64,000 nucleotides of DNA from Candidatus Omnitrophota bacterium (GCA_035403965.1 DAONGE010000001.1:85008-149007), one strand, 5' to 3'. Counted from the first letter of the stretch, positions 6,481 through 61,975 are shown. Numbers and translations: made by a program. The notes: generated by a model not told the origin, from the letters alone.

Positions 6481-6570
6481 GGAGGAGTGGCAGAGCGGTC
6501 GATTGCGGCGGTCTTGAAAACCGTTGACCTCGCAAGAGGTCCGTGGGTTCGAATCCTACCTCCTCCGCCA
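6481..6570 (+). tRNA. tRNA-Ser (anticodon TGA)
   Basis: Acceptor stem GGAGGAG/CTCCTCC, discriminator G and an encoded CCA. D-arm GCAGAGCGG. Anticodon stem-loop GCGGT-CTTGAAA-ACCGT places TGA at positions 34-36. The long variable arm (TGACCTCGCAAGAGGTCC) is typical of Ser. T-arm GTGGGTTCGAATCCTAC. Confidence 0.85.
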
Positions 6571-7010
6571 TGAAATGCACAAAAGCGGGAGAAAACTATG
6601 TTTTCTCCCGCTTTTTTTGCATTTCATTCAAACATTGCTTCCATACATATTTTAAACGGGCAATGTTTGCGCCATTCGCTCGCAGCGGTTTTGAAAAGGA
6701 ATTTCAAAACCGCTTTTCACACTCATGCCGGGCGGAGGAGGCAGGGCACCTTCGCTCACCTTGTTCGCTTCGGGGTCCTATCTCCTCCGCCAGAAAAATG
6801 CAAAGGGCGGGTTAAGAATAAATTCTTCCCCGCCCTATTTGCATTTTTCTTAAAACATTGCCTGCCGTTTTGCCACTCGTTGCAATGTTTTGGCATCCGC
6901 TCTTTCGGTTTTTATGAATAAATTCCTAAAAACCTCATTCGCTTCTGCCGGCGGTGTCGGTAGGGCACCTTCGCTCACCTTGTTCGCTTCGGGGTCCTAC
7001 CTCATTCGCC
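6571..7010 (+). repeat. two tandem degenerate ~220-bp units, each ending in a direct repeat of the tRNA-Ser 3' end (att-like)
   Basis: The tRNA 3' end tcctacctcctccgcca (6554-6570) recurs as tcctatctcctccgcca (6776-6792) and tcctacctcattcgcca (6994-7010). A 45-nt block agggcaccttcgctcaccttgttcgcttcggggtcc precedes both copies. Each unit starts with a GC hairpin plus T-run. Confidence 0.6.
6585..6618 (+). terminator. rho-independent terminator after tRNA-Ser
   Basis: Perfect 12-bp stem GCGGGAGAAAAC / GTTTTCTCCCGC with a 2-4-nt loop, followed by TTTTTTT. Confidence 0.65.
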
Positions 7011-7271
7011 AGTTTTATTATGCAATGGGGTATCATTTTAAAGAGATACCCTTTATTATTTCAATAAACAATATCCATCTGTGAGAATACCGTGGAATAA
7101 CCCATTTCTTAACGTAATATGCTTGATACATACTGAAAAACGAGTATTATATATCATTATAATTCCCAGAGATGTCGGTTTGTCTAAAGACCAGTAGATT
7201 AAACTTATTATGGACGAAGTCGTTCATGACCGCGGTAATTAAGCTTTTGCCGCAGAAGGAAGATAATAATT

Positions 7272-8150
7272 ATGAGCGGAGAGCCGATCCATTTAAAAAA
7301 TACGGCGTTAGCTATAACCGAGCGATGCACCCTCAGGTGTAAATTGTGTTTCGCCTATATACCGTACCATGATAACCCGCAGGATATTACTATTGATGTG
7401 CTCGACACGATTTTACGGCGATATTTTTCTATTGTATCAAGCGTGGATCATTTTTGTGTAACGGGAGGGGAGCCATTAGTGCATCCGCATTTGTGCGCTA
7501 TTTTAAATATGATAAACGGGTATTCGGGACAGATAAACAAAACGATAGACATTATAACCAATGGGACATTGGACATTAAGGATGATGTACTCGGATTTTT
7601 GAAGCAGAACAAAGATAAAACACGTGTTATTATCAGTGACTACGGCAAATATTCTCCTAAAACAAAGACTTTAGAGGAACGATTGCGTTCTTCGGGGATA
7701 ATTGTCAGGATAGAAAGATATGCCGCGGATGATCCGCTTTATGGCGGATGGATAGATTGCAGGGATCATTCTTTGAAACACTTTACGCAGGAAGAAATTG
7801 ACAGACAAGGGAAACACTGTTATTTCAAAAATAAAAGAGGGTATACTATCCGTAAAGGGGAATTGCATAACTGCGGACGGTCATATTGGCGAATGCTGAA
7901 GAATATTATTCCGCGCAATCCGGAGGAATATCTGAATTTGCTGGATATGGAGACGCCGATCGAACATCAGCGCGAAATATTGAGAAAATTGCATAAAAAG
8001 GACAGTGTAACCAGTTGCGCGTATTGTTGGGGAGCGAATGCCCGGAGTAAGAGATATAAGCCGGCCGAACAACTTCCGGCCAAAGTTAATAGATGGTCGA
8101 TAAAATACATAAGAGATCGGTTTTTTTCAAAGTGGCTTAGAACCTGGTAA
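7272..8150 (+). CDS. radical SAM protein, small paralog A (CxxxCxxC near the N-terminus, C-terminal Cys cluster)
   Basis: ITERCTLRCKLC gives the canonical CxxxCxxC motif. GGEPLVHP is the glycine-rich SAM motif. A TNGTL motif is present. Four further Cys are conserved with paralog C (HCYF, HNCGR, SCAYCWGA). A ribosome-binding site AAGGAAG precedes the start. Confidence 0.7.
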   Translation: MSGEPIHLKNTALAITERCTLRCKLCFAYIPYHDNPQDITIDVLDTILRRYFSIVSSVDHFCVTGGEPLVHPHLCAILNMINGYSGQINKTIDIITNGTLDIKDDVLGFLKQNKDKTRVIISDYGKYSPKTKTLEERLRSSGIIVRIERYAADDPLYGGWIDCRDHSLKHFTQEEIDRQGKHCYFKNKRGYTIRKGELHNCGRSYWRMLKNIIPRNPEEYLNLLDMETPIEHQREILRKLHKKDSVTSCAYCWGANARSKRYKPAEQLPAKVNRWSIKYIRDRFFSKWLRTW

Positions 8151-8170: not shown

Positions 8171-8836
8171 ATGACAGACGGGCCCTTGCGTTTTAAACAT
8201 ATGGCATTGTGTATAACCGAGCGGTGTACGTTAAAATGTAAACTATGCCATGCGCATATACCGTATCATGATGATCCGCGCGACATGACGCTTGATGAGG
8301 TCGAAACCGTCCTTCATAGGCTTTTTTCGATAATAGAAAGTGTGGACGCTTTTGACATAGCGGGCGGGGAACCTTTGCTTCATCCGGACTTAGCCACTAT
8401 ATTAAAAATCGTTGATAAATATTCCAACCAAATAAACAGGACCATCGATATCACTACTAACGGCACGTTAGAAATGACGGATGAAACCGTTGATTTTTTC
8501 AGGGCCAGAAAAGACCGGACCCGCGTGATAATCAGCGATTACGGCAAATATTCCCCTAAAGCCAGACTATTAGCCGAAAAATTGAGTTCGTTGGGGATAA
8601 ATGTCCGGGTTGACCGTCACTACGGCGATTCCCCGATCTATGGCGGGTGGATAGATGACCGGGATCTTTCGTTGAAATTTTTTACACAACGCGAGATAGA
8701 TGAACACGGAAAAAATTGCTTTTATCGGGAGAAAGGGTGGCCCATAAGGAAAGGCGAGTTGCATAATTGTTCAAGGGGCTACTGGCGAATGCTTAAAAAA
8801 GTTATTCCGCGTAATCCTGTTCGCGGGGTTCAATGA
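8171..8836 (+). CDS. radical SAM protein, small paralog B (C-terminally truncated relative to A and C)
   Basis: ITERCTLKCKLC and GGEPLLHP are present. It is collinear with A and C up to IPRNP, then stops. It lacks the ~55-aa tail that carries the SCAYCxGA pair. It may be a decaying copy. Confidence 0.6.
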   Translation: MTDGPLRFKHMALCITERCTLKCKLCHAHIPYHDDPRDMTLDEVETVLHRLFSIIESVDAFDIAGGEPLLHPDLATILKIVDKYSNQINRTIDITTNGTLEMTDETVDFFRARKDRTRVIISDYGKYSPKARLLAEKLSSLGINVRVDRHYGDSPIYGGWIDDRDLSLKFFTQREIDEHGKNCFYREKGWPIRKGELHNCSRGYWRMLKKVIPRNPVRGVQ

Positions 8837-8879
8837 TAGTGAGATAGGTGTTTAATATCATACTTAAATTTGGGATAGA

Positions 8880-9557
8880 ATGAAGAACAATTCGGTTAAA
8901 TTCGGGTTTTATACGTCAAATCGGGCCACGCGGCTTCGCAAATTTCTTTCAGGCCCGCTTCGCGGGAACTCGATTATTGGAATGGTTTTGCATGACGGGA
9001 TCCCGTCCGATGAGCTTAAAAACTTATGTGATCAGAACGGGATAGACCTTATGGCCGTTGATTACGTTGAGCTTGGTGTTGACAAGAGCCGCCGTAATAA
9101 ATATTTGTCTGATGTTTTATTAGAGCAGCTTGTCGCCCGGGGAGTAGATTATTGTTTTTGTTTTGGGTCATGTATACTGGTCGGGGATCTGTTGCGGGTT
9201 TTTCGTAACAGGATCATCAATTTCCATCCTTCGCTGTTACCGGCGTTCCCCGGCATAAAAGCGGTCGATCAGGCTATTGAATACGGGGCGCGATTTCTGG
9301 GGAATACAGCCCATTTTATAGATGAAGGAGTGGATACCGGGCCCATAATAATGCAGTCCATTATTTCGGCGGAAGCGTTCAGTGGGTATGATTCGGTGCT
9401 TGACCAGCAGTTGCTCATGTTGGCCCAGATCATTAAGTGGTTGGAACAAGGACGGATCGAAGTTAGCGGGAGAAAAGTAAATGTACGCGATGCCGTTTGT
9501 GATGATTTGACCTTTATGCCTAATGTCGAGCCCGATTTGTTACAAAAATTATTGTAG
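8880..9557 (+). CDS. formyltransferase-domain protein (sugar N-formyltransferase-like)
   Basis: INFHPSLLPAFPGIKA and FIDEGVDTGPIIMQ match the catalytic N..H..D signature of the Formyl_trans_N family (PurN/Fmt/ArnA-like). The 225-aa size and glycan-cluster context suggest a sugar formyltransferase. Confidence 0.65.
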   Translation: MKNNSVKFGFYTSNRATRLRKFLSGPLRGNSIIGMVLHDGIPSDELKNLCDQNGIDLMAVDYVELGVDKSRRNKYLSDVLLEQLVARGVDYCFCFGSCILVGDLLRVFRNRIINFHPSLLPAFPGIKAVDQAIEYGARFLGNTAHFIDEGVDTGPIIMQSIISAEAFSGYDSVLDQQLLMLAQIIKWLEQGRIEVSGRKVNVRDAVCDDLTFMPNVEPDLLQKLL

Positions 9558-11688: not shown

Positions 11689-12492
11689 ATGGGCATGATA
11701 CAATTGCAACGATCCGCGATAGCCGTAACGCAGCGTTGTACTTTAAGATGCAAGTTGTGTAACGCGTATATGCCGTATTATGTTAAACCGGCGGATATGC
11801 TTTTTGACAAGATAGAAAAAGTCCTGGATAGGTATTTTTTAATCGTGGACAAAGTGGGCATATTCGGCGTGCTGGGAGGGGAACCGTTGTTGCATCCGGA
11901 TATAGCGAAGATCCTGAAAAAAATAAATTCGTATACCGATCAAATTTCCGAACGGATAGATCTGGTGACCAATGGTACGCTGGACATGGATGATGAGACA
12001 TTCGCTTTTTTTGTCGATAACGCGCCAAAGGCCAAGGTCATTATCAGCCACTATGGCAAGCATTCCCCGAAAGCCGATATCCTCGCTAAAAAACTCGAAG
12101 CCCATGGCGCGAATTACAGGGTAGCCGTCTATCACGGAGAGGATCTGTTGTACGGCGGGTGGATAGATTATAGGGATCATTCAAAAAAACATTTTACTCA
12201 GGAGGACATTGATCGGCAGGGGCGGAATTGCATTGTAAGGAAAGGGCAGTATTATCTGATCAGCGAAGGCGAAATGCATACCTGCACAAGGGCGCACTGG
12301 CGCATGCGGCAGGGGATAATTCCCCGTAATGCGGACGAATATTTGAATCTGCTCGACGATACTATATCCGTGGAAAAACAAAGGGAGATTTTGAGCAGGA
12401 TAGACAGCCGGGTTAGCATGACATCTTGTGCTTATTGCGAAGGCGCAAGTAATGAAAGCAAGCGATATCAACCCGCAGAGCAGTTAAAATAA
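11689..12492 (+). CDS. radical SAM protein, small paralog C
   Basis: VTQRCTLRCKLCNAYMPYY (CxxxCxxC), GGEPLLHP and TNGTL are present. The C-terminal Cys (NCIV, HTCTR, SCAYCEGA) and the final KRYQPAEQL are shared with paralog A. Confidence 0.7.
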   Translation: MGMIQLQRSAIAVTQRCTLRCKLCNAYMPYYVKPADMLFDKIEKVLDRYFLIVDKVGIFGVLGGEPLLHPDIAKILKKINSYTDQISERIDLVTNGTLDMDDETFAFFVDNAPKAKVIISHYGKHSPKADILAKKLEAHGANYRVAVYHGEDLLYGGWIDYRDHSKKHFTQEDIDRQGRNCIVRKGQYYLISEGEMHTCTRAHWRMRQGIIPRNADEYLNLLDDTISVEKQREILSRIDSRVSMTSCAYCEGASNESKRYQPAEQLK

Positions 12493-33242: not shown

Positions 33243-34628
33243 GTGCTAAAATCCATATCAACAAAGGTTATGTTTATTCTGAGAATGAAGTATCGAACGA
33301 AAGAGATAACTGATTGCAATATGGGAACCGAAAAGAACGAAAAAATAGAATTTAATGAGGATTTCAGCGCGGCGTTTGCCGAAATGGAATATACGAAAAA
33401 CCACGTTTTTGTCACCGGCAAGGCCGGTACCGGAAAATCCACGCTATTGAGGTTCTTTAAAGAAAATACAAAAAAGAAAGTGGTTGTTCTTGCGCCCACC
33501 GGGGTTGCCGCTGTCAACATCGATGGACAGACTATTCATTCTTTTTTCGGCTTCCCGCCGAAATACATAGATGTCAGAAGCGTCCGTAAGGTTCGAGGGA
33601 GAAATCTCATGGAAAAATTAGACGCTGTCGTGATAGACGAGGTGTCTATGGTAAGAGCGGATCTTATGGATGGGATAGATCAGGCGCTGCGGGTTAACAG
33701 GGACGAGCCCGGTAAAAAATTCGGCGGTGCACAGATGATATTTTTCGGGGATCTTTATCAGCTTTCACCCGTTATAGACAGGGAATCACGGGAGCTTATG
33801 GAGGAACAGTACAAAAGCCCGTATTTTTTCAGCGCCGATGTGTTCAAAGGATTATCGTTACGTTTTTTTGAGCTTCAGAAAGTGTACAGACAGTCCGATA
33901 AAAAATTTATTGAAATGCTTAATAGATTCAGGGATAACGGTAATACAAAAGAGGATATCGAGCGGCTTAATGAAAGGGTAGACCGGACCGCGGATGACAG
34001 GAAAGATGGAACGGTCATTCTTACGGCCACGAACAGCGTCGCCGGGGCGATAAACGCGAAAAGGCTTTCTGAAATAAAAAGCGAACAGTTTGAGTATAAA
34101 GCCACCGTTACCGGTGAGTTTGAAGAAAAATCTTATCCTACCGAATCGTCTCTTATGCTTAAAAAAGGCGCGCAAGTGATGCTCATCCGGAATGACCCCG
34201 GGAAAAGATGGGTGAATGGGACTATAGCGGAAATAACGGCATTGACCGAGCGATCTATTGAGGTGAACATTAATGGCGAGAAATATGAAGTATCACCTGT
34301 GATATGGAACAAAATAAGATATGTTTATAACCGTCTTGAGGATAAAGTGGATGAGGAGATCGTCGGAACGTTCTCGCAATATCCTATAAAACTTGCCTGG
34401 GCCATCACTATTCATAAAAGTCAGGGGCAGACATTCGATAAGGTGATCATAGAATTGGGCAAAGGCGCGTTCGCGCACGGACAGGTATATGTGGCTCTTA
34501 GCAGATGTACGGCGCTTCAGGGGATCACTTTGAAACGTCCCATACTTCGGGAAGATGTGATCTTCGATCAGCGGATACATTATTTTCAAAAGGGGCTTTT
34601 GGGAGAGATAGTAAGGGAGGAAATATAG
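33243..34628 (+). CDS. PIF1/RecD-like superfamily 1 DNA helicase
   Basis: Walker A GKAGTGKST, Walker B VVIDEVSM, and the C-terminal IHKSQGQTF...VALSRC motifs are typical of the Pif1/RecD family. The true start may be ATG 33321. Confidence 0.7.
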   Translation: MLKSISTKVMFILRMKYRTKEITDCNMGTEKNEKIEFNEDFSAAFAEMEYTKNHVFVTGKAGTGKSTLLRFFKENTKKKVVVLAPTGVAAVNIDGQTIHSFFGFPPKYIDVRSVRKVRGRNLMEKLDAVVIDEVSMVRADLMDGIDQALRVNRDEPGKKFGGAQMIFFGDLYQLSPVIDRESRELMEEQYKSPYFFSADVFKGLSLRFFELQKVYRQSDKKFIEMLNRFRDNGNTKEDIERLNERVDRTADDRKDGTVILTATNSVAGAINAKRLSEIKSEQFEYKATVTGEFEEKSYPTESSLMLKKGAQVMLIRNDPGKRWVNGTIAEITALTERSIEVNINGEKYEVSPVIWNKIRYVYNRLEDKVDEEIVGTFSQYPIKLAWAITIHKSQGQTFDKVIIELGKGAFAHGQVYVALSRCTALQGITLKRPILREDVIFDQRIHYFQKGLLGEIVREEI

Positions 34629-34672
34629 GTTGTAGGGTCGAGGGTGAAGGGGGTAGGGCAGGGTGGAGGGTT

Positions 34673-35095
34673 ATGAGATTTAGTGTAAGCATGGAAAAAG
34701 AAGAGGCGTTGAAAAAAAAGATGGATTCTCTCGGGATCAAGGAAAACGATATCGAGGAAAAATTCATTCTTTCAGGCGGCAAAGGCGGGCAACATGTGAA
34801 CAAGACGTCGTCCTGTGTTTATTTAAAGCATGGCCCTACGGGTATCGAAGTGAAATGCCAAAAAGACCGCTCGCAGTCTTTGAACCGTTTTCTGGCGCGG
34901 AGGATGCTCGCCGAAAAAATAGAATCCATGGTACTTGGAAGAGCGTCTGAGGAACGGCGAGCGATAGAGAAGATCAGGCGCCAAAAAAGGAAAAGATCGA
35001 AACGGGCAAAAGAAAAAATGCTCAGGGATAAAAAAATAAATTCCGAAAAGAAAGAACTCCGTCAGTTCGATGTGTCTGAGACGGATGTCGAGTAA
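34673..35095 (+). CDS. arfB: ArfB-like GGQ-domain peptidyl-tRNA hydrolase (alternative ribosome rescue factor)
   Basis: GGKGGQHVNKTSS is the GGQ motif. The size is ~140 aa, and a Lys/Arg-rich C-terminal tail is present as in ArfB/YaeJ. ATG 34673 is preferred because the upstream 34505 start would overlap the helicase gene. Confidence 0.65.
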   Translation: MRFSVSMEKEEALKKKMDSLGIKENDIEEKFILSGGKGGQHVNKTSSCVYLKHGPTGIEVKCQKDRSQSLNRFLARRMLAEKIESMVLGRASEERRAIEKIRRQKRKRSKRAKEKMLRDKKINSEKKELRQFDVSETDVE

Positions 35096-35099
35096 TAAT

Positions 35100-36060
35100 T
35101 CGGCTGTGGGAACATGTGCGATACTACTTTTAGGATATAGTTAAGAAATGGGCAATCGGCAAGTTTTGTCGTTCAGACGATTTCCTTTTTCGGAGAATTT
35201 TCTGACAATTTTGGCGCTTGCGGAACTCGCCTTAACGTGACATCCGTTCTTTACCAGAACGTATGCCACGTTAAAGCTCAAACAGTCCTCGGCGGCCTTG
35301 TCATTCACATTCCAAGCCTCCCCAAAATAGTCATAAAATTCTCCGGGAAATCGTATTCATTCCAAAACTTACCGACGGCCCATTCTTAGCCAGAGTCTAA
35401 ATGAAGGATAGTGTATGCTTTCCGATCCGCCTGTTCGGAAGTTCTGCGCGCTTTTAATATGGGAGCGAAGGAGGAAGCGGGAATCTACGGCGTCATTGCG
35501 AGGAGCGAAGCGACGAAGCAATCTTTGGGTAGCGAATAGAGCATTACGCATAGATTGCTTCGCTTCGCTCGCAATGACAGCTAAGAGATGCTTCATCCTA
35601 CGTCAAATTACTTTATATTATTTGGCTTCGGAGGAATAGTCGTTGCTTTGCTCCTCGCTGTGGCGTGGAAAGAGAAGTTTGTGTTCTTTCGTGCGGGGGC
35701 ATCGGGAGGCCGAGCGGGCACGGTTCCGGCGGAGCGACATTTATTTTAATTGTATGGATCCCCGCCTAAAGCGTGCGGGGATGACATTTTTGGCGACGCC
35801 GGAGAGCGAGGCCGAACGTTGAGCGAAGAAATTCGGCCTCGTCCGGTGGCCTCGGCACTCCCTCGGACATTTCGTCCTCGGTCGCAGGGGATTTCAAGCA
35901 GCCTGTCCGCCGTAGCCAAATAATATAAAATAGTTCGGCGAAGGTGGATCCCCGGCAGAAAGAACACAAACTTCTCTTTGAGGTGCCCAAGGACAAAAAA
36001 ACCTTTTTTTTAGAATAAAAGGTGTGATATATTAAGCGTATTGTTTTTAAAAAATTAACG
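35100..36060. repeat. mosaic intergenic repeat locus 1 (modules shared with 41.1-41.6 kb and 56.8-57.2 kb)
   Basis: Contains cggagaattttctgacaattttggcgc (35192-35218), gtcataaaattctccgggaaatcgtattcattcca (35330-35364) and gcctgttcggaagttctgcgcgcttt (35429-35454). A long imperfect hairpin lies at 35482-35578. tattatttggcttcggagga and agaaagaacacaaacttctc each occur in both orientations. The overlapping ORFs (35369-35596, 35415-35639, 35746-35967, 35766-36083) are judged spurious. Confidence 0.6.
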
Positions 36061-36073
36061 AACAGGCATACAA

Positions 36074-37180
36074 ATGTCGTCACATGATAATGCAGATCTA
36101 AAAAGGACTCCGCTTTACGAAGAGCATGTAAAGCTTAACGCGCGCATGGTACCGTTCGCCGGATGGGAAATGCCGGTGCAGTATCCACAAGGCATCATCG
36201 AGGAGCATCTGCATACCCGAACCAAAGCCAGTATCTTTGATATCTGCCACATGGGTGAGTTCATTATCGGAGGGCCAGCGGCGTTCGATGACGTGAACAG
36301 GATTGTTACATGCCGTATAGATGATCTTCCGGACGGAAAAGCAAGATACGGTTTTTTGCTGAACGAAAAAGGCGCGATCATTGACGATCTGATAGTGTTC
36401 AGGTTGTCTAAAAATGATTATATGCTGGTCGTGAACGGCGGAACTATAGACAAAGACGCTGAATGGGTGGAGTCGCAGTTATCTTCAGGGACACACTTTC
36501 GTAATGAGTCGGAAAGTACGGGTAAGATAGACGTGCAGGGTCCGTTATCGACCGGGATAGTACAGGAAGCATTAAAACTGCAGGATGTATCAGGGATAAA
36601 ACGTTTTTCGTTCAGATATGATAAATGGGAAGGCGTAGATCTCTTGATAAGTTGCACGGGATATACCGGTGAAAAAGGGTATGAACTTTTTATGCCGGCT
36701 CCCGGAGTGAAAAAAGTCTGGGAACGTCTTTTAGAGTTCGGAGACCTAAAACCTGCCGGTCTTGGTGCCAGGGATTCTCTCCGGCTCGAGATGGGATATT
36801 CGTTATATGGGCATGATATAGATGATAAACGGACGCCTGTCGAAGCGGGCCTTGAGAGGTTTGTCCATTATGGAAAAGATTTTATAGGTAAACCGGCGCT
36901 TCTTACGCAAAAAGAAAAGGGTACAGAAAATATCCTGTCCGGATTTATATGTGAAGGGCGGCGTGCCGCGCGTGATAATTTTAATGTTATTCGCGATGGA
37001 AAAATATCAGGAAGAGTGACGAGCGGTGTTTTCTCGCCGTGTTTAAAATTGGGTATCGGGCTTTGCTATATAAAGAAGGAATTGTCGGCTGAGGGAACCG
37101 ATATTCAGCTTGGCGATACCGACGGTAAAATAATTATAAATGCTAAAATTAAAAAGCCGCCTTTCGTTCAGAAGGCATGA
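36074..37180 (+). CDS. gcvT: glycine cleavage system T protein (aminomethyltransferase)
   Basis: Typical GcvT sequence throughout (MPVQY..., ASIFDISHMG-like block ASIFDICHMGEF). 368 aa. Confidence 0.9.
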   Translation: MSSHDNADLKRTPLYEEHVKLNARMVPFAGWEMPVQYPQGIIEEHLHTRTKASIFDICHMGEFIIGGPAAFDDVNRIVTCRIDDLPDGKARYGFLLNEKGAIIDDLIVFRLSKNDYMLVVNGGTIDKDAEWVESQLSSGTHFRNESESTGKIDVQGPLSTGIVQEALKLQDVSGIKRFSFRYDKWEGVDLLISCTGYTGEKGYELFMPAPGVKKVWERLLEFGDLKPAGLGARDSLRLEMGYSLYGHDIDDKRTPVEAGLERFVHYGKDFIGKPALLTQKEKGTENILSGFICEGRRAARDNFNVIRDGKISGRVTSGVFSPCLKLGIGLCYIKKELSAEGTDIQLGDTDGKIIINAKIKKPPFVQKA

Positions 37181-40366: not shown

Positions 40367-41086
40367 ATGAAGATAATCACTGCCGATATATTATCGCCGG
40401 AAGAATTGATCGCCGCGGACGAATATATTCTTACGAAGGCCGAGAGCGGGGACATGGGAGAGACTCTCAGGTTCTGGGGATCCAAAAAATATTTTGTGGT
40501 GCTCGGGCGTTCCGGGAAAGCCGGTGAAGAATGTTTTTTGGAGCGTTGTAAATCTGACGGCATCCCGGTGATAAGGCGTATATCCGGCGGGGGGACTGTT
40601 CTTCAGGGGCCGGGGTGCCTCAATTATTCGCTCATACTTTCCAATAAAAATATAAATTCGCGAGAGATCCGTTCATCTTTCGAGGCGGTACTTGGAAAAA
40701 TTATAGGCGCTTTAAAAGATAAAGGCATTGACGCGGAATTCTTTCCTGTATCAGACCTTGCGGTGTCAGGAAAGAAATTTTCAGGTAACGCTCAGGCCCG
40801 GAAAAAAGATTTTTTTCTGCAACATGGGACCTTTCTGCTCGATTTTGATATAAATAAAGCCACTCTATATCTTAAACATCCACCTAAGGAACCGATATAC
40901 AGAAAAGGTAGAGAACATGGGGCCTTTATGGATAATATCGGGTTATCCGAAAACGAAATAAAAGAAATGATCCTGTCTATCTGGCCTGTTGACGGTGAGT
41001 ATAAACTTTTCAGCCACGACCTATCCTCGATAAAAGAACTTGTTCTGATAAAATATTCTCAAGACGCGTGGAATCTGGTGTTTTGA
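40367..41086 (+). CDS. lipoate-protein ligase / octanoyltransferase-family protein (BPL_LplA_LipB domain)
   Basis: RRISGGGTVLQGPG and GKKFSGNAQARKKDFFLQHGTFLLD match the LplA/LipB catalytic domain. It starts 1 nt after the gcvPB stop, so it is co-operonic with the glycine cleavage genes. Confidence 0.7.
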   Translation: MKIITADILSPEELIAADEYILTKAESGDMGETLRFWGSKKYFVVLGRSGKAGEECFLERCKSDGIPVIRRISGGGTVLQGPGCLNYSLILSNKNINSREIRSSFEAVLGKIIGALKDKGIDAEFFPVSDLAVSGKKFSGNAQARKKDFFLQHGTFLLDFDINKATLYLKHPPKEPIYRKGREHGAFMDNIGLSENEIKEMILSIWPVDGEYKLFSHDLSSIKELVLIKYSQDAWNLVF

Positions 41087-41089
41087 GCG

Positions 41090-41560
41090 GAGAGCTTCAT
41101 TCGGAGAATTTTCTGACAATTTTGGCGCCGAGGAACAGTCCCTCCCATGATGTTTCCGGACCTGCCTGTTCGGAAGTTCTGCGCGCTTTAGAAAAATACC
41201 CTGTTATTTTTGATCTCCAGGCGTTTGATGCTTCGCTGAAGCGTAAAATAATTTTATCTTTTGCGGGTATTTTTCTTAAGTGCTCGAACATTCCGAATAG
41301 GCGGATCGACGGGAAAACGTTTTTAAGGTTTAGTATGGGGTGAATCCGTGAATGACGCGCGACATCTAAGAGATAGAAAGTATATATTTTGTAGAGATTG
41401 CTTCCTCCTGCGCCAAATTACTTCATACTATTTGGCTTCGGAGGACGTCCCCACAACGGTTGGTGCCCGATAGAAACATTCGGAATGAAATAGGGCGAGC
41501 GTCCACGGTAGAAAGAACACAAACTTCTCCGAAAAAGGAAATCGCCTAGGACAGAACGTC
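41090..41560. repeat. mosaic intergenic repeat locus 2
   Basis: cggagaattttctgacaattttggcgc (41102-41128) and gcctgttcggaagttctgcgcgcttt (41165-41190). A ~105-bp block at 41190-41295 is near-identical to 56907-57010. caaattacttcatactatttggcttcggagga (41416-41446) and agaaagaacacaaacttctc (41508-41528). ORF 41068-41343 is spurious. Confidence 0.6.
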
Positions 41561-41588
41561 TCGTTCGCAAGGTAAAGCAAAATGGGAA

Positions 41589-42053
41589 TTATTTATTTTC
41601 AGTTAGTTTAATGGTCCCCACCGCTACCGAAGACGGGATCTTTCCGGCAAGTCCGTCATTTATGATCTTTTCGGCTTTTTGGAGTGCTGTCGCGCTTGCC
41701 GAACATATGGTCATAACGGTTTTGCTGTCGCTTGAAGCGGCAAAAAAGAAACCCACTTGTGTGGTGTTGGTCTGCTTGGGATAATCCATCGATACGATAT
41801 AACCTTTTGCGAGACTTTTGCGATATATCATGATATCGTTACCTTGCAATATATTTACGATCTTGTCGAATGCGTCTTTGATGGGCATATCGAGTTCTTT
41901 TTTTATCCCTTTATCGCGTGTTTTTTCGAGATCCGACAGGCTTATTCCAAGGACGTCACTGAAACTTTCCGGATAGGAGACGCAGCCGGATAATCCAAAT
42001 GATGATATGATCAGACACATGGCCAAGGCTAACGCAGTTCCGGAACGTTTCAT
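41589..42053 (-). CDS. hypothetical lipoprotein
   Basis: Signal peptide with a lipobox (SSFGLSGC). 154 aa. No known domain. Confidence 0.5.
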   Translation of the reverse strand: MKRSGTALALAMCLIISSFGLSGCVSYPESFSDVLGISLSDLEKTRDKGIKKELDMPIKDAFDKIVNILQGNDIMIYRKSLAKGYIVSMDYPKQTNTTQVGFFFAASSDSKTVMTICSASATALQKAEKIINDGLAGKIPSSVAVGTIKLTENK

Positions 42054-53719: not shown

Positions 53720-53933
53720 GGGTGGGGGAATTGTGCCAGAGTGTCATGTGTCAGGTGTCATGAAGCAGAAAACAAAATTGTCATTCCCGCATGTCTTTAG
53801 TGGGAATCTATGATATGAAATATTTTAATTTTACAGATCCCCGATAAAAGCGTTCGGGGATGACAGGGTTGAGAAATTCGAGATTCGAAATTCGATGATA
53901 ACGTAGGGGCGAACATCGTTCGCCCGAATCTTT

Positions 53934-54016: not shown

Positions 54017-54394
54017 ATGAGTATGGATATTGGGAAAACAGAGAAAGCCGCGATAATGATACTGACGATCTTGTTGTTCGCCGGCACGGTTCTCTTTGCG
54101 GTGCGTCTCAGGGCCACTGAAAATAGAATAGAAGTTATAGAGGGGGGGATATCCCGCATGTTGTCATTGATTGAGGTGGAACGGATCCTGGACGAAAAAA
54201 GAAAAATTAATATGAATACCGCCTCGATAGCCGACATTGAACTATTGCCCGGAGTAGGTCCGGGACTTGCCCGACGTATTGTCGAATACAGGGAACTTGT
54301 CGGAAAATTCAGGTCACCCGAGGATCTAAAGTCGGTCAAAGGGATAGGAGAGAAAAAGCTTGAGGTAATACGGCCTTTTCTGAAGTTCCAATGA
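54017..54394 (+). CDS. comEA: competence protein ComEA (helix-hairpin-helix DNA-binding)
   Basis: N-terminal TM segment. The C-terminus INMNTASIADIELLPGVGPGLARRIVEYRE...GIGEKKLE has tandem HhH motifs typical of ComEA. Confidence 0.8.
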   Translation: MSMDIGKTEKAAIMILTILLFAGTVLFAVRLRATENRIEVIEGGISRMLSLIEVERILDEKRKINMNTASIADIELLPGVGPGLARRIVEYRELVGKFRSPEDLKSVKGIGEKKLEVIRPFLKFQ

Positions 54395-56805
54395 AAAAAT
54401 ATTTATTGATATGCCCGTTTATCTCTTTTCTGATGGGGATAATAGCGGTTAAATGTTTTTCGGTTTTCCGATGTCTGTCGGAGCCCCTGATGATCTTTTT
54501 GATCTTATCGGTGCTTATCGTTTTGCAGGTTGTTTTGTTTCGGATAAATAGATGGTTTTATCTGATCGTATGTACATCATTCTTTCTTTTAGGTTTTTCC
54601 AGATATATGGTCTCAATGGAATATGGAAGTGACCATATATCGCGGTATATTCACGATATACCGGAAAAAACTTTGATCTATGGTACGGTGTCGGGCTATC
54701 CCGAGATCAGAAAAGGCCGGTTTTCAGAATATCATGTTTTTCCTCTGACTGTCGATAAGATCGCGGTAAACGGTGAATTTGTCAGGGTTGAAGGAAAGAT
54801 CATGGTAAAACGATACGGTGTTTTTTCGATATCAGCGAGTGACAAGATCGTTATCGGGGGAGAGCTTGTGTCCCCTGCGAATGTTCGGAATCCGGGAGGG
54901 TTCGATCAGAGAGAATATATGCGTAGCGTTGGTATAAGCGGTGTTTTGCGTTCAAGGGATCTCGACCGGTATATGAAAGTCGGTACTTCAAATGCTTTTG
55001 CGATGGGGATCGTTCGAGTGCTGTTTTTCGCGCGTGAAAAAGCTAAAAAAATAGTGGAACAATATGTGCCCGATGATATGGCGCGAAGTATCATAGTTTC
55101 CATTATTATCGGCGCCAGAACTGACATCCCTCCTGAGCTGAATGATTTGTTCATAAGGACCGGGACTTTGCATATACTCGCGGTGAGCGGCCTCCACACA
55201 TGTATCGTTGGTCTTGTGCTGCTGTGGTGTCTGAGGGGCATAAATGTTCCGTGGAAAATGGTGTACATAATATCGTCGATGGGAGTGTGTCTTTACGCGG
55301 TGTTTACGGGATGGGCCCCGTCGAGCTTGCGCGCGGCGATAATGACATCATTAGCTTTTTTAACGAAGGCTATCGGGCGGAATGTCCCGTTGATACACGC
55401 ATTATTTTTGTCGGCGTTCATTATTTGCTTCGTCTCTCCAGGGCAACTTTTTCAGCCGGGTTTTATACTTTCATACGCGGCGGTGCTAGCTATTTTATGG
55501 CTTGTTCCGTACAGTGACAGGCTTTTAAATATTCCAAGCGAGAAAGTTACGGACCTGCCCGGGAAAATATGGGTTGGCGCGCGAAGGTCTTTCTCGTTGT
55601 CTCTTGCCGTGTGGATAGGCATGATGCCGATCATAGCTTTTTATTTTAATCTGGTAACGCCGGTCGTGGTTCTCGCTAACTTAATAGCTGTTCCAGTTTT
55701 TTTCGTTATTTTGATACTCGGAGGGGCACTTATTTGTGCGGGATCGATCGGTGTAATGAGTTTTCTGTCCGCCGCGTTAGGCACGGTAGTGGTTTGGGTG
55801 ATAAATTTTTTTATTTATTCATTGCGGATATTCGATAGTGTACCGTTCTCAAGTACGCAGATATCTTCCCCGGGAGCCGGTTTGATAGCGGCATATTATC
55901 TTTTACTGTGCGGGTGTGCCGTTATTTACGCCGGATCCGGTCGAAAAAGGATCGCTATAATCTTTATCCTTTTCGCGTGCAATCTTTTTTTATGGAAAGA
56001 AATTTTTGTTTCAGGCCCGCCTGAAAATACGAGGATCACCTTCTTTGACGTCGGGAAGGGGGATGCCGCGCTTATCGAAACGGCTAAAGGAGGGGTTGTG
56101 CTTATTGATGCGGGGCCCGGCGGTGAAAAGGGCGACGCGGGAAGGAACATTATAGCGCCGTACCTTCGGAAACATGGGATACGTTCCGTAGATTGTGTCG
56201 TTGTGACCCATCCGCATGACGATCATTATGGGGGCATGGACTACATCCTTGATAATTTCGATGTGGAGATGATGATATCCCCGCCTCAGGCGTTTGATGT
56301 GGATGGGGGATTCTCCGACATGGTCAACAAGGCGAAGAAGAAAAAAATATCATGTAAACCGGTTTCGGCCGGAGCTGTTGTTTCCGGTATCCCCGGGGTA
56401 GGTTTATACGTTTTGGGGCCGGATGGCAAAAAGAAGGATACGGGATATAATGAGATGTCGGTGGTGCTTAAGGCCGTGACAGATAAAGGCAATAGCGTTC
56501 TTTTTTGCGCAGATGTTATGGGTGAGGCTTTAAAGGATGTCGCGGGGTATCAGAAAATGCTTGTGTCGGATGTCGTAAAAATCCCGCATCACGGCGGGAA
56601 TGTAGGAGAGTTAAAGACGATAGAATATTTTCTGGAGACTACACAAAGTAAATATGTTGTGGTATCGAACAATGACAAGAAGTACGTCAATAAGGAGATC
56701 ATGCGTATTTTGTCTATGCAGGGGGCGGAGATCTGCACGACATATGAAAGAGGGGCGATTGTGTTCGAAGAAGGCGATAAACTAAAAGCGCGTCATTTTC
56801 GTTAA
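54391..56805 (+). CDS. comEC: DNA internalisation competence protein ComEC/Rec2 with a C-terminal metallo-beta-lactamase domain
   Basis: Polytopic competence domain (LHILAVSGLH). The C-terminus has VVVTHPHDDHYGG and FFDVGKGDA, a metallo-beta-lactamase fold. ATGA overlap with comEA. Confidence 0.85.
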   Translation: MKKYLLICPFISFLMGIIAVKCFSVFRCLSEPLMIFLILSVLIVLQVVLFRINRWFYLIVCTSFFLLGFSRYMVSMEYGSDHISRYIHDIPEKTLIYGTVSGYPEIRKGRFSEYHVFPLTVDKIAVNGEFVRVEGKIMVKRYGVFSISASDKIVIGGELVSPANVRNPGGFDQREYMRSVGISGVLRSRDLDRYMKVGTSNAFAMGIVRVLFFAREKAKKIVEQYVPDDMARSIIVSIIIGARTDIPPELNDLFIRTGTLHILAVSGLHTCIVGLVLLWCLRGINVPWKMVYIISSMGVCLYAVFTGWAPSSLRAAIMTSLAFLTKAIGRNVPLIHALFLSAFIICFVSPGQLFQPGFILSYAAVLAILWLVPYSDRLLNIPSEKVTDLPGKIWVGARRSFSLSLAVWIGMMPIIAFYFNLVTPVVVLANLIAVPVFFVILILGGALICAGSIGVMSFLSAALGTVVVWVINFFIYSLRIFDSVPFSSTQISSPGAGLIAAYYLLLCGCAVIYAGSGRKRIAIIFILFACNLFLWKEIFVSGPPENTRITFFDVGKGDAALIETAKGGVVLIDAGPGGEKGDAGRNIIAPYLRKHGIRSVDCVVVTHPHDDHYGGMDYILDNFDVEMMISPPQAFDVDGGFSDMVNKAKKKKISCKPVSAGAVVSGIPGVGLYVLGPDGKKKDTGYNEMSVVLKAVTDKGNSVLFCADVMGEALKDVAGYQKMLVSDVVKIPHHGGNVGELKTIEYFLETTQSKYVVVSNNDKKYVNKEIMRILSMQGAEICTTYERGAIVFEEGDKLKARHFR

Positions 56806-56809
56806 TGAT

Positions 56810-57150
56810 GCTGTTGGATTGAATTGTCATATTCGATCACTTCGGAGAAGTTTGTGTTCTTTCTTCCGGGTATTTCCCTCCGACTGTTCGGAAGTTCTGC
56901 GCCCTTTAGAAAAATACCCTGTTATTTTTGATCTCCAGGCGTTTGATGCTTCGCTGAAGCGTAAAATATTTTTATCTTTTGCGGGTATTTTTCTCAAGTG
57001 CTCGAACTTCCAAACAGGCGGATTGTGGGAAAAGTGTTTTAAGGTGCATGTATTTTTCTGTTCTTTTCAAAATAGTCATAAACTTCTCCGGGAAATCGTA
57101 TTCACTCCATTCCTTCTCGTTTCGCCAAGTCAACTAATGGGTGATTACTT
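56810..57150. repeat. mosaic intergenic repeat locus 3
   Basis: gagaagtttgtgttctttc (56850-56868) is the reverse complement of the module found at 35957 and 41508. gactgttcggaagttctgcgccctttagaaaaataccc... (56883-57010) is near-identical to 41165-41295. gtcataaacttctccgggaaatcgtattcactcca (57077-57111). ORF 56819-57211 is spurious. Confidence 0.6.
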
Positions 57151-57358
57151 CCATAGCTATGCAGAAAGAACAAATGGATCAACATTTACTGGTGTGAAAA
57201 GATGCGCATGATAAGGTTCTGATCTGACATTCGTGTCGGATTTGGTGGCATTTTTTAAATTGCATGAGATGGTTGACTGGGTATTTTTTATGTGATAACC
57301 TAACTTTTGAATAAAAACTGTAATATATAGTAAACATATGTGTTTATAGGAGGATAAT

Positions 57359-58153: not shown

Positions 58154-58332
58154 AAATACAGGGTGGTCACAGTATAGCGCATAGTTTGAATTGTTAACGG
58201 CGGAATGATGGAAAAACTGAAGAATTGTTTGTTGAATCCCGTGTTTACGTGTAAGATAATCTGCGGACTTTGTGTAGTAAAATTCGGATAGACGCGTGCA
58301 TGGTAAAACAAAATAAGAGGGAAAAGGACTAT

Positions 58333-60096
58333 ATGAAAAAAATAACCGTGGCTTTGATCTTCTTTTTTCTGGCGAATGTAATTTATTTTACTACCGGGAG
58401 CGTTACTGCGTATGCGGTGGATGAATCAAATTCACGCGATGCGGCTACTGCGAAAACTACGCTTAAGAGATCAGCGATGGCGGCGGAAGCGCTGAAGCAT
58501 TTGGGAGATACTGAGAAGTATGATCCGAGTGCCGCGTACCAGGGAACAGGTGGTAAAGCGGCAGCAGATAAAGCGGCAGCAGATAAAGCGGCAGCAGATA
58601 AAGCGGCAGCAGGTGAATCAAGTATATCCGAGTTTGCCAAGATGAAGAAAGCGGAGGCGGCGGCAGTGAAAAAGCAGATTGAAAACTATAGTAAAAGAGA
58701 GGATACGATTGATTACGGTGCAAACTTGACTCAGGCGAATTCCTCGGCACTTAAAAGGCCGACGGGTGCAACCTTTAGAGACAAGTATAAAGACTATACC
58801 GCCGAGACCCAAGATAAAGGGGAAAAGGCCTCCCAAGCGGGCTTTTATGAGGGAACAAAACAAGGATCCGGTTACAGTAAGCCAAAGACAGAGGCTTCCA
58901 AAACACAGATAATGCTAAACAATGTGGGTAAAGCACCTGAGGCGGCGCAGGAGAGAAATTTGACAGACGCGAAACAATTGATCGTTGGAAACGCCACAGC
59001 GGGAAAAACGGCAGCGGATAAAGCAGCAGCAGATAAGGCAGCAGCGGAAAAAGCGGCAGCTGAAAAAGCCGCTGCTCAGAAGGCAGCCACTGACGCAAAA
59101 GCTCTAGCGGCGGAAAAACAGGCTGCGGCGGAAAAAGCCGCGGTTTTGGCGGCAAAAGCCGCCGCTGACGCAAAATCTGCCACCGTGATAAGGGAACATG
59201 CGGATAGAAGATTAAGCGGAACAAAAAGTGCAGTCGAAAAGGCGAAAAAAGAAGGGATTCCTTCGGGTACACAAAATACCATGGACGATGTTGTGAAAGT
59301 AAGAGAGAAATACAAACAGGAAAAGTCTACAGAAGAGAACGCGGCGAAAAAAGCCGCAGAAGACGCGGCAAAAGCGGCGGAAGCAGCTGAAAAAGAGGCA
59401 AGGGAAGCGGCGGAAAAAGCCGCGGAATTAGAGAAAGCCGCCGGAATATCGTCGGGGGATAAAACGGTAAGTCAGGCTGAAGAAGAAGCCAAAAAAGCAA
59501 AAAATTCCGTCGCCGCTGCGAAAAAGGCGCTAGAAAAAGCGATAGAAAAAGTAAAAACAAATAAAGCGGACGCCGAGACAAACTCGCTTGAAATAGAAGC
59601 AGCGAAAAAGACAGCGGATGATTTTGAAAAAAGGGCGGAAGATTATGCCAGAGAGGCGCAAAGGCTGAAAGAAGAAGCTGAAAAGAAAAAAGGAACTAGT
59701 GATGAAGCAGCTGCTAAACGGCGAGCAGATCTGGCAGCACAGGAAGCGGATAGAGTAGCTAAAGAAACTGCCGGACCGAAACAAAAGGTGAAAGATCATA
59801 TGGTCAAAGCCGCATCCTTGGACCGCGCGATAAAATCAGCGGAAGAAGAAATAGAAAAAGCGGCAAAGGCTTTATCAGCTGCGAAAGCCGCAGCGGCGGC
59901 GGCGGATAGGGCGGTAGCTGACGCCACCGAGCGCGAAAAAGCGACATCGAAAAATAACGATAAGGGGGAAAATCAATCCGCTAATAACGATCTAAAGTCT
60001 CTGAAAGATGACATGGCGAATGATAACGAGATATTGGATACAAAAGATATACAGGCGCAAAAACAGGCACAAAACGAGATAAGTCCGTCACGATAA
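58333..60096 (+). CDS. secreted Ala/Lys/Glu-rich low-complexity protein (predicted long alpha-helical; TolA-domain-II-like composition) with the conserved C-terminal tail
   Basis: Ribosome-binding site GAGGGAAAAGG precedes ATG 58333. Signal peptide MKKITVALIFFFLANVIYFTTGSVTAYA. Contains (AADKA)n and EKAAKEAAE repeats. It ends DDMANDNEILDTKDIQAQKQAQNEISPSR. The ORF track's upstream start at 58270 was rejected. Confidence 0.6.
   Translation: MKKITVALIFFFLANVIYFTTGSVTAYAVDESNSRDAATAKTTLKRSAMAAEALKHLGDTEKYDPSAAYQGTGGKAAADKAAADKAAADKAAAGESSISEFAKMKKAEAAAVKKQIENYSKREDTIDYGANLTQANSSALKRPTGATFRDKYKDYTAETQDKGEKASQAGFYEGTKQGSGYSKPKTEASKTQIMLNNVGKAPEAAQERNLTDAKQLIVGNATAGKTAADKAAADKAAAEKAAAEKAAAQKAATDAKALAAEKQAAAEKAAVLAAKAAADAKSATVIREHADRRLSGTKSAVEKAKKEGIPSGTQNTMDDVVKVREKYKQEKSTEENAAKKAAEDAAKAAEAAEKEAREAAEKAAELEKAAGISSGDKTVSQAEEEAKKAKNSVAAAKKALEKAIEKVKTNKADAETNSLEIEAAKKTADDFEKRAEDYAREAQRLKEEAEKKKGTSDEAAAKRRADLAAQEADRVAKETAGPKQKVKDHMVKAASLDRAIKSAEEEIEKAAKALSAAKAAAAAADRAVADATEREKATSKNNDKGENQSANNDLKSLKDDMANDNEILDTKDIQAQKQAQNEISPSR
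58556..58611 (+). repeat. tandem 15-nt coding repeat (aaagcggcagcagat x ~3.7) encoding (AADKA)n
   Basis: Direct inspection. Similar imperfect 15-nt arrays lie at 59010-59060 and 60913-61003. Confidence 0.7.
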
Positions 60097-60241
60097 AGGA
60101 TATGGTTTTAAAAGACGAGGGAACGAATAATTATACGTTTTAATTTTGATATGCGGAATAATGTGTGGTACTGTTGTAAAGATATTCTGACGGAAAGGAA
60201 GCGGTGAAGATGAATCTTTGCAACAACAATTTGAGGAGCTT

Positions 60242-61975
60242 ATGAAAAAACTTACCATTAGCATTGCCTGTTTTTTTCTGATGAACATTATATGTTGTAC
60301 GGCTTCGGATGTCAGTGTGGCCGATGAATCAAAAAATATAATCACTCCGGGGAATTCTAACTTGACAACAGGATCAGGGACAGGCGCGGCATCAAAAGAC
60401 GAGACAAAAAAAGGAGCTTCTGGCGCAAATGTTCGCGCGGGTGCAGGCGCAGGTGGATCCGCAGCTGCTGGACTAACAAGTGGAAAGCTTGCAGGCATTT
60501 CCAGTGGAGTAGCCGCAGTAGCTGCTGGAATAGCCGCAGCGTCTGGAGCCGGAGGAGGTGGTGGAGTAGTACCATCATCAGGAGCAGGTGCGAAATCAAC
60601 CGCTGCAGCGGATAAAGCGGTAATAGCCGCAGCCGCAGCAGCAGTAACAGTATCAGATCAAGCGGCAACGTATAAAGCAGCAGCGGGTGTATCTGATCAA
60701 AACGATGGGGCTACTACGAAAACTACGTCTCAGAAATCAGCGGCGGCGGAGGCAGCACTGAATCAGCTGAAAAATTTTGGTAAAGATAAGAAAAAATATG
60801 ATCCAGGTGCCGCCTTGACTAAGGCGGATTCCTCGGCAATAAAAAATGCGTTGGGTTCAACTGATGCGAAACAACAAGCCTTTAGTACCAAGTACCAGCA
60901 ACCAGGTGAGAAGTCGGCAGCAGAAAAAGCAGCAGCGGATAAAGCGGCGGCAGATAAGGCAGCAGCAGATAAAGCCGCGGCAGATAAAGCAGCCGCAGAG
61001 AAGTATTCAGCCGCGGAAAAAGCCGTAGTAGAGAAGGCTAAAGCTTCTGTCGCGTTAACCGCGGCGGAAAAGGCGCAAGCCGAGGCGGAAAGCGAATTGA
61101 AGAAATTGGAAAGTATGGACTCCGCAACGCGATTTCTACTCTTTGGTGTAGCTAGGGAGGGGGATCAAAAATATAAGGGAGCTCTAAAAGAAGCGGAAGC
61201 GAAAGTTGCCGCGGCAAAAGAGGCGACAGAGAAAGCTGAAAAGACGGCAGAGGAAACTAAAGAAGCGGCGGATAAAGCTGAAAAAGAGGCGATAGACGCC
61301 GCTAAAGCGGTAAAAGCCCTTACAGTCGGGGCTACAGGAGAAAAAACAGCGACGGAAAAAGCGGCAGCGGCGGAAAAAGCGAAAAAGGAAGTTAGCGAAG
61401 CAAAAGACAATGTTAAGGCGACGGAAAAAGCCGCCGCTTTGGCGGTAGAAAAAGCAGCCGAAGCCGTGGCAAAAATAAAAGCGAATAAAAAAGCGGCGGA
61501 AGAAGCCAAGTTAGCGGCAGAACAAAAGACAAACGATGCAAAGGAAATAGCAAGAAAGTTAGAGGCGGCAAAAGAAGTTAAGGAAAAAGAAAATAAAAGA
61601 GGGAACACCAATCGTGCAACCGATCTGGTGATCACAAGGAATACAGCATCCCTTGAAGAGTATAAAGCAGAAGCAAAAAAATTCCAGCAGGAAGAGGCTG
61701 ATAGGTTAGCGGAGATAAAAAAATTAGAAGCAGAGGCAAAATTAGCTGAAGAAGAAGCCGAAAAAGCGGCATTAGCGGCATTGTCGGCAAGAAAGGTGTT
61801 AGCTGACAAATCATATGAGGCAGAAAGAGCGGAAGAAGCCGCGAAAGGTACGTCAAGTAAAACAGGTTCGGCGGATAAAGACCTAAAGTCTTTGGAAGAA
61901 GACATGGCGAATGATAACGAGATATTGGATACAAAAGATATACAGGCACAAAAAGAGATAAGTCCGTCACGATAA
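60242..61975 (+). CDS. secreted Gly/Ala-rich then Ala/Lys/Glu-rich low-complexity protein, paralog of 58333-60096, with the conserved C-terminal tail
   Basis: Ribosome-binding site GAGGAG precedes ATG 60242. Signal peptide MKKLTISIACFFLMNIICCTAS. Shares KKYDP.AA and (AADKA)n with the upstream paralog. It ends EEDMANDNEILDTKDIQAQKEISPSR. Confidence 0.6.
   Translation: MKKLTISIACFFLMNIICCTASDVSVADESKNIITPGNSNLTTGSGTGAASKDETKKGASGANVRAGAGAGGSAAAGLTSGKLAGISSGVAAVAAGIAAASGAGGGGGVVPSSGAGAKSTAAADKAVIAAAAAAVTVSDQAATYKAAAGVSDQNDGATTKTTSQKSAAAEAALNQLKNFGKDKKKYDPGAALTKADSSAIKNALGSTDAKQQAFSTKYQQPGEKSAAEKAAADKAAADKAAADKAAADKAAAEKYSAAEKAVVEKAKASVALTAAEKAQAEAESELKKLESMDSATRFLLFGVAREGDQKYKGALKEAEAKVAAAKEATEKAEKTAEETKEAADKAEKEAIDAAKAVKALTVGATGEKTATEKAAAAEKAKKEVSEAKDNVKATEKAAALAVEKAAEAVAKIKANKKAAEEAKLAAEQKTNDAKEIARKLEAAKEVKEKENKRGNTNRATDLVITRNTASLEEYKAEAKKFQQEEADRLAEIKKLEAEAKLAEEEAEKAALAALSARKVLADKSYEAERAEEAAKGTSSKTGSADKDLKSLEEDMANDNEILDTKDIQAQKEISPSR

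Follow-up and report, generated by a model that had tools for sequence, protein, structure and literature searches.

Intergenic spacers of a Candidatus Omnitrophota bacterium carry patchworks of hairpin-forming non-coding repeats that probably multiply as non-autonomous elements

We analyzed a 64,000-nucleotide stretch of a Candidatus Omnitrophota genome (GCA_035403965.1, DAONGE010000001.1:85008-149007; hereafter the window), in which the spacer of about 1 kb between arfB and gcvT (locus A) is a patchwork of several short hairpin-forming non-coding repeat families. What had been taken for a single "family" consists of several nested ones: the V, U and T elements and a set of 29-nt hairpins. 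The explanation that we favor, with a probability of roughly 0.6, is that this spacer, the region downstream of lplA (locus B) and both flanks of comEC (locus C being the downstream one) are mosaic arrays of 29-330-nt palindromic interspersed repeats that are non-coding, lineage specific and multiply as non-autonomous elements.

The intervals 34900-36300, 40950-41750 and 56650-57350 were inspected directly, and repeat finding and a sensitive self-comparison were run over the whole window. A first-pass annotation, made from the sequence alone, had listed five modules of the arfB-gcvT spacer (numbered as in Table 1) that recur at loci B and C, and all five were found where it had placed them or within a few bases. 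For instance, the exact 29-mer TTCGGAGAATTTTCTGACAATTTTGGCGC is present at 35189-35217 and 41100 (0 expected), and the 19-mer CTGTTCGGAAGTTCTGCGC occurs at 35431, 41166 and 56884 (three copies versus 0.02 expected). The interval 35323-35364 is 95% identical to 57068-57109, and 35584-35635 resembles 41393-41445 (89% identity) and is found again, inverted, at 35906-35944. The 20-mer AGAAAGAACACAAACTTCTC lies at 35957(+), 41510(+) and 56845(-), and with one mismatch at 35672(-); no copy appeared in 100 shuffles. For this fifth module the recurrence stands, and only the positions 41508, 35663 and 56850 had been slightly off (41510, 35672 and 56845). Loci B and C further have a 164-nt stretch in common (41166-41329 and 56884-57045, 93% identity). 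Once redundant contigs were removed, nearly all bases of 35121-35985 were matched elsewhere, with 1-13 matches each.

The larger structures described at locus A were borne out as well. The 97-nt hairpin at 35482-35578 folds as DNA with -32.1 kcal/mol (z -8.1), and the inverted modules that flank a GC-rich core correspond to 35669-35979 (fold z -8.5). The picture of one interspersed family at three loci is supported with refinements: the repeats are interspersed and the three loci do recur, but the window has four loci (53779-53872 is the addition) and the genome has dozens, and the repeats fall into several nested families rather than one. The resemblance among modules 1, 3 and 5 arises because T and V have the outer part of their terminal repeats in common (..TTGGCGAAACGAGAAG..ACGATTTCC..CGGAGAA..), while their interiors are unrelated.

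The V, U, T and hairpin units all fold strongly as single-stranded DNA (z -6.8 to -8.5), and they are found intact, truncated, chimeric and nested in one another. V is a foldback of about 235-330 nt. The copy at locus A has terminal inverted repeats of at least about 65 nt (...ACGATTTCC..CGGAGAATTTT..A..ATTTTGG), and copies on other contigs (L020, L023, L048 and L053; L-numbers are our labels for metagenome loci and contigs from the scans below) show roughly 90-95% identity. There are at least seven V copies; seven ORF-bearing (open reading frame) copies are found in the protein database, one of them in the same NCBI accession series as the GcvT of the window. The stem of the V central hairpin has compensatory G-C, A-T and T-A variants. 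U has 15 copies, nine of which (U1) are 94-97% identical at unrelated sites while six are diverged, and U1 lies in both orientations relative to the flanking genes. Its centre of about 65 nt is conserved, and its arms vary between subfamilies yet covary, with compensatory changes at 13 of 27 arm pairs. T elements span 148-450 nt and end in GAGAAGTTTGTGTTCTTTC. The compact form of 148 nt (L011, L033) has a GC-rich core (fold z -7.6), and the long forms (L014, L021, L040) have three 29-nt hairpins with AT-rich spacers. As examples of nesting, a 47-nt palindrome sits inside a delta-type hairpin both in the window and in L053, and U was seen framed by V-type ends.

The 29-nt hairpins have the form GTCAT-NCCCGN-9 nt-NCGGGN-ATC followed by YATAAYATKAAA, with about 20 occurrences that we sort into alpha, beta, gamma and delta types. 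In an alignment of 20 hairpins from the window and the metagenome loci, T2, C3 and C29 never vary, and 16 of the 20 have G1. Stem cells are paired in 99.4% of cases, and two stem pairs occur as alternatives (UA/GC/CG and AU/CG). The stem of the alpha hairpins is ATTCCCGC/GCGGGAAT.

The host population lives in anaerobic digesters: a GcvT identical to that of the window is encoded on digester metagenome contigs (JGI, ENA and Logan). As the second-best GcvT match reaches only about 60% identity, there is no close relative for comparing orthologous loci. A metagenome scan with the T 19-mer GAAAGAACACAAACTTCTC returned 37 loci, of which 13 (seven distinct sequences in unrelated contexts) were discarded as chance matches. 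Distinct copies of this 19-mer on contigs of the same population number 25; they occupy 17 loci, at 8 of which they form inverted pairs 130-433 nt apart. The retained loci come from three digester samples, all of which also carry the gcvT contigs of this population. In about 214 kb of non-redundant contigs we counted about 30 mosaic arrays of varying composition. They occupy the spacers of tandem, convergent and divergent gene pairs, and their neighbors are ordinary housekeeping genes, such as ftsA/proC in the cell-division cluster, sugar-nucleotide genes, nikR and marR. Public contigs of the population often start or end inside arrays (L005, L007, L008, L017, L022, L033 and L037) because multi-copy repeats break assemblies. 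It had been proposed that local duplications would be the better explanation if the modules lacked further copies and terminal repeats. This is not what we found: T, U and V are multi-copy with terminal inverted repeats, given 25 T termini and about 30 mosaic regions beside unrelated genes.

Outside this population we obtained little. Among GTDB representative genomes, just two sites, in unrelated metagenome-assembled genomes (MAGs), matched the U core 19-mer, and both are chance matches. Literature searches on repeats of Omnitrophota and on the characteristic spurious peptides of these repeats found nothing.

Table 1. Repeat units and flanking genes discussed in the text (window coordinates; module numbers follow the first-pass annotation)
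Feature	Position	Strand	Remarks
V element	35117-35372	-	fold -46.8 kcal/mol, z -7.1; central hairpin 35232-35274
U, truncated left arm (module 2)	35415-35454	+	88% to 41150-41189, 78% to 56868-56907
Inverted doublet of delta-type hairpins (GTCATTGCGAGGAGCGAAGCGACGAAGCAATC and partner)	35492-35578	both	makes the 97-nt hairpin; GTC-AT...AT-C grammar
Composite: delta-type half-site split by 47-nt palindrome (module 4, 35593-35639)	35584-35663	-	
T element	35669-35979	+	terminal inverted repeats 35669-35698 / 35950-35979 (AAAGAGAAGTTTGTGTTCTTTC); fold z -8.5
Interior of T 35669-35979	GC-rich core 35698-35723, 35798-35841; gamma hairpin 35757-35785; P module 35899-35951	gamma hairpin -	
V-type terminal-repeat fragment (module 1)	41097-41136	+	exact 29-mer with 35189-35217; 92% over 38 nt
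U1 with conserved right extension	41159-41336	+	palindrome of about 150 nt, 41159-41307, with 43-nt arms; fold z -7.6
47-nt palindrome, second copy (module 4)	41393-41446	+	repeat finding, self-comparison
Decayed beta-type hairpin (GGTGCCCGATAGAAACATTCGGAATGA)	41462-41488	-	read from the sequence against intact beta hairpins
Solo T terminus with outer extension (..AAATCG..CTCGTT.GC.A.G)	41506-41573	+	inverted match to 35152-35204
Alpha and gamma hairpins, fourth locus (53779-53872)	alpha 53780-53808; gamma 53836-53864	alpha +; gamma -	upstream of comEC; missed in the first pass
Solo T terminus	56841-56868	-	directly after the comEC stop codon
U1 with right extension	56877-57045	+	palindrome 56877-57023, fold z -6.8; 93% to 41166-41329
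V/T-type outer terminal-repeat fragment (module 3)	57068-57140	+	57068-57109 95% to 35323-35364; resembles extensions after the T 19-mer elsewhere
arfB	public call starts 34673		140 aa, entire RF-1 domain
comEC	54391-56805		Pfam: Competence, DUF4131, Lactamase_B

The ORFs that lie within the repeats are spurious and not genes, as had been claimed. The arfB-gcvT spacer contains 14 ORFs of at least 30 aa, some of them called by public pipelines, and the 59-aa "hypothetical protein" HPS21124.1 is located within a V copy. No Pfam family is assigned to the repeat ORFs in the public precomputed annotation, and their homologues are only repeat copies. For instance, the 130-aa ORF of locus C matched only itself and the ORF of locus B among 5.8 billion proteins. 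In the same set of proteins the 55-aa ORF of V (35141-35308, minus strand) matched only six other V copies, and the 105-aa ORF over the T element had two weak matches among 1.8 billion representatives. Among five V copies, variable sites are spread evenly over the three codon positions (12, 11 and 9), nonsynonymous differences (7-16) far exceed synonymous ones (1-4), and an in-frame stop interrupts one copy. These three signs led us to reject small coding genes as an explanation of V, whose ORF has no coding signature. A CRISPR-like array was also considered and rejected because the spacing is irregular.

The closest counterpart of the 29-nt hairpins is found in Neisseria. The NTS of that genus, CGTCATTCCCGCGMAVGCGGGAATCYRG, is a superset of dRS3; small GIY-YIG nucleases (cd10448, Ssn) cleave the NTS and a degenerate Ssn-related motif (SRM) when the DNA is single-stranded, and these motifs usually flank an ssn gene (PMC11893778). 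The three bases 5' of the NTS palindrome are needed for cleavage and the C just 3' of it for binding (PMC11893778). The Omnitrophota hairpins are likewise oriented, with GTC directly 5' of a palindrome that starts with AT and a C directly 3' of it, and the alpha stem is identical to the Neisseria stem (ATTCCCGC/GCGGGAAT). They too are intergenic and multi-copy and often form inverted doublets, and their subfamilies are set apart by compensatory stem changes, as are NTS and NTSvar. They differ in the loop (9 nt versus 4-5), in the conserved 3' tail (AT-rich YATAAYATKAAA versus YRG) and in the host, an Omnitrophota MAG in which we found no ssn gene in about 280 kb of contigs. A word search of the paper on Ssn found no mention of Omnitrophota (PMC11893778). 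When we applied the published SRM pattern, HGTCWYN(0-2)YYVSBRHN(0-5)WNVSBRGN(0-2)RNCYNB (PMC11893778), to 214 kb, there were 8 matches versus 1.25 in simulations, namely 7 alpha hairpins and 1 gamma hairpin; the window alone has 2 versus 0.26. Judged by their sequence grammar, the alpha hairpins are SRM-like. Similar hairpins were also seen on two unrelated contigs classified as viral in IMG/VR (GC 58%), which contain inverted doublets of NTS-type hairpins (L057 8498-8577 and L058 at about 8800-8890). In these doublets a canonical CGTCATTCCCGCGAAGGCGGGAATCCAG stands beside a variant with a 9-nt loop like those of the window.

As a whole, the arrays are best described as a lineage-specific mosaic that resembles Neisseria intergenic mosaic elements (NIMEs), bacterial interspersed mosaic elements (BIMEs) and miniature inverted-repeat transposable elements (MITEs). 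NIMEs are arrays in which dRS3, a 20-bp repeat with the form ATTCCC-N8-GGGAAT, stands on either side of RS units of 50-150 bp that belong to more than 100 families, and they are stated not to occur outside Neisseria (PMC1797815). Like NIMEs, the Omnitrophota arrays are intergenic, mix many short-repeat families with dRS3-type hairpins, and vary in composition by site; the long T elements, with three hairpins between AT-rich spacers, are a further likeness. However, the hairpin spacing here is ATTCCC-N13-GGGAAT rather than N8, and the main units (T, U and V) are long palindromes mostly not bounded by hairpins. For these two reasons the arrays are not NIMEs in the strict sense.

The repetitive extragenic palindromic sequences (REPs), BIMEs and REPINs of enterobacteria and pseudomonads have a palindrome with a 5' GTAG and are mobilized by RAYT, whose gene is flanked by REPs. 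The Omnitrophota arrays are similar in being extragenic, in combining short palindromes of alternating orientation with other short motifs in mosaic clusters, and in having inverted doublets that give longer hairpins. Because the hairpins begin with GTCAT and lack GTAG, they do not belong to the REP/BIME class; in addition, the companion units are far longer (150-330 nt) and no RAYT gene was seen in the contigs examined. MITEs and foldback elements, such as the Correia elements (CREE) of Neisseria and the palindromic elements (RPEs) of Rickettsia, agree with our units in length (100-330 nt), in terminal inverted repeats, in being non-coding, in the many near-identical dispersed intergenic copies, and in subfamilies with the same ends and different interiors. 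They differ in that here neither a target-site duplication nor a parent insertion sequence was identified, and in that the interior of U is conserved and its arms variable. Unlike RPEs, no insertion within genes was seen.

We infer mobility from the near-identical dispersed copies. The units would multiply as non-autonomous elements, most plausibly by way of single-stranded hairpin intermediates on which an enzyme from another part of the genome acts in trans. An Ssn-type GIY-YIG single-strand nuclease is the obvious candidate for acting on the 29-nt hairpins, since these follow the NTS/SRM grammar, and for the longer foldback units the candidate would be a hairpin-dependent or terminal-repeat-binding transposase. 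Nested insertion and recombination between copies could then shuffle the modules into mosaics. Compensatory changes maintain the stems of the 29-nt hairpins, the U arms and the V central hairpin. Because inverted repeats covary under both models, this covariation does not separate a hairpin from a terminal-repeat mode of recognition.

A number of results count against this account, beginning with the missing partner. In about 280 kb of contigs no GIY-YIG, no RAYT/TnpA and no multi-copy transposase ORF was found; the search for GIY-YIG used a motif regular expression on ORFs of all six frames, and the Pfam search covered only 15 small or flanking ORFs, so that a divergent enzyme could have been missed. 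An all-against-all comparison of ORFs returned no multi-copy transposase-like ORF. By Pfam, the small ORFs adjoining the arrays had no HUH, TnpA or RAYT domain and encoded only NikR, MarR, AdoMet decarboxylase, UDG (uracil-DNA glycosylase) and a PEP-CTERM protein, and among the 37 metagenome loci no inverted T pairs lay more than 433 nt apart. Neither presence/absence polymorphism nor target-site duplications, both of which the first-pass annotation had suggested looking for, were seen. Where contigs of different samples overlap, their alignments run from end to end at an identity of at least 96% and contain no internal gaps, and no empty or filled site polymorphism was seen among them; no consistent duplication was found at the ends of T, U or V, where units abut others and the true ends are uncertain. 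The hairpins themselves are also uneven. Most beta and gamma hairpins fall outside the published SRM pattern, and neither locus B nor locus C has an intact 29-nt hairpin; locus B has only the decayed beta remnant at 41462-41488. One enzyme need not serve all families, because T, U and V units stand at loci B and C without an intact hairpin. Finally, a conserved centre with variable arms, as in U, is unusual for a terminal repeat recognized by a transposase, and it fits an RNA or a loop-recognizing protein equally well as it fits a mobile element.

Some of these points bear on two other explanations. T, U and V may be cut-and-paste MITEs whose double-stranded ends are recognized by a DDE transposase from a full-length insertion sequence elsewhere, with the hairpins incidental. 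Terminal inverted repeats from 19 to at least 65 nt, the common outer ends of T and V around unrelated interiors, and small, non-coding, near-identical copies at unrelated sites are all as such a system predicts. We nevertheless regard it as unlikely. None of the 37 metagenome loci contains an element with ends several kb apart, the contigs examined have no multi-copy transposase ORF, and target-site duplications are not discernible; moreover, the terminal repeats are unusually long and imperfect, and the U arms differ by subfamily around a conserved centre. Alternatively, the repeats may be structured RNA elements (small RNAs, REP-like stabilizers of 3' untranslated regions, or terminators) selected for hairpins in the transcript, with their spread secondary. 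The hairpins are highly stable, every copy is intergenic, the stems named above carry compensatory changes, and U combines its conserved centre of about 65 nt with covarying arms as structured RNAs do. A small hairpin at the U centre has a T-rich tail and is terminator-like in the copy at locus C. Nevertheless, Rfam at the gathering threshold found only tRNA-Ser in the whole window, and in permissive mode over 35050-36100 only microRNA matches at chance level (E >1). In loci A and C, promoter- and terminator-like sites are no more frequent than in shuffles; for locus B, 4 promoter-like sites stand against 0.8 expected, and there is no terminator. U1 stands in either orientation relative to the flanking genes, many copies are truncated, chimeric or nested, and the covariation is expected under a DNA or terminal-repeat model too. 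On balance we judge the explanation by RNA elements improbable.

It is far less credible that local duplications or decayed small genes left the modules behind. The reading frame of some modules does stay uninterrupted in several copies (four of five for the V ORF), and one frame of the outer repeat shows peptide-like conservation (WRNEKEWSEYDFPEKF). These traces are outweighed by dozens of copies on different contigs beside unrelated housekeeping genes, by the substitution pattern and in-frame stop of V described above, by stops and frameshifts in other copies of the outer repeat, and by the lack of homologues beyond the repeats. The mosaic of non-autonomous palindromic elements remains our preferred explanation. 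A more far-reaching version of it is tentative and, in our estimate, doubtful: the arrays may form a functional NIME-like system outside Neisseria in a ComEC-bearing member of the Omnitrophota. The hairpins, with three or four specificities, and the foldback units would then label intergenic DNA as a target of one or several Ssn-type nucleases that gate the recombination of imported DNA, and the U centre would be a separate recognition site at the protein or RNA level.

The genes that frame the arrays agree with earlier naming, in that Pfam assignments support arfB, gcvT, lplA and comEC. The mechanical ORF of arfB (34505-35095, 196 aa) is longer than the public call and overlaps the upstream gene for a PIF1-like helicase (33243-34628). 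Arrays are present on both sides of comEC, with hairpins upstream (53779-53872) and T, U and V fragments downstream (56841-57140), which may be a coincidence given how many spacers carry arrays. An AT-rich segment directly upstream of gcvT (36000-36049) is 75% alike to one directly upstream of a FecR-like gene at 57359 (57297-57348); the two may be a common promoter region rather than part of a repeat.

Further repeats of the window are of other kinds. A tRNA-Ser at 6481-6570 is followed by two 63-nt copies (6731-6793 and 6950-7012, 89% identical to each other) that imitate its acceptor stem and 3' end (GGCGGAGGAGG...CCTATCTCCTCCGCCA), each with a hairpin and T-run after it. They may be tRNA remnants or attachment-site-like repeats. 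Most direct-repeat families of the window stem from two genes (58270-60096 and 60218-61975) for paralogous proteins of about 600 aa that are rich in Ala, Lys and Glu and have 15-nt periodic repeats (AAGCGGCAGCAGATA...). Three other paralogous genes (7272-8150, 8171-8836 and 11689-12492) lie within 5 kb and have 49-61% protein identity. The GC skew is positive in all 2-kb bins of 1-64000 (+0.09 to +0.28) and almost all long ORFs are on the plus strand, which together suggest that the window belongs to a single replichore with strong gene-strand bias.

The repeats have practical consequences for this lineage. They inflate spacers and yield false ORFs and hypothetical-protein calls that have already entered public databases (such as HPS21124.1), and they fragment MAG assemblies, so masking them would improve annotation. 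With these arrays, hairpins of the NTS/dRS3 type are now found in a candidate phylum known only from metagenomes, where three or four compensating stem variants co-occur in arrays that also contain foldback families not described before. Should the genome prove to encode an Ssn homologue, the organism would offer several natural enzyme/site specificities and would give, besides Neisseria, a second case of mosaic arrays around NTS-type hairpins. The finding is also a lead to Ssn-type systems beyond cultured bacteria.

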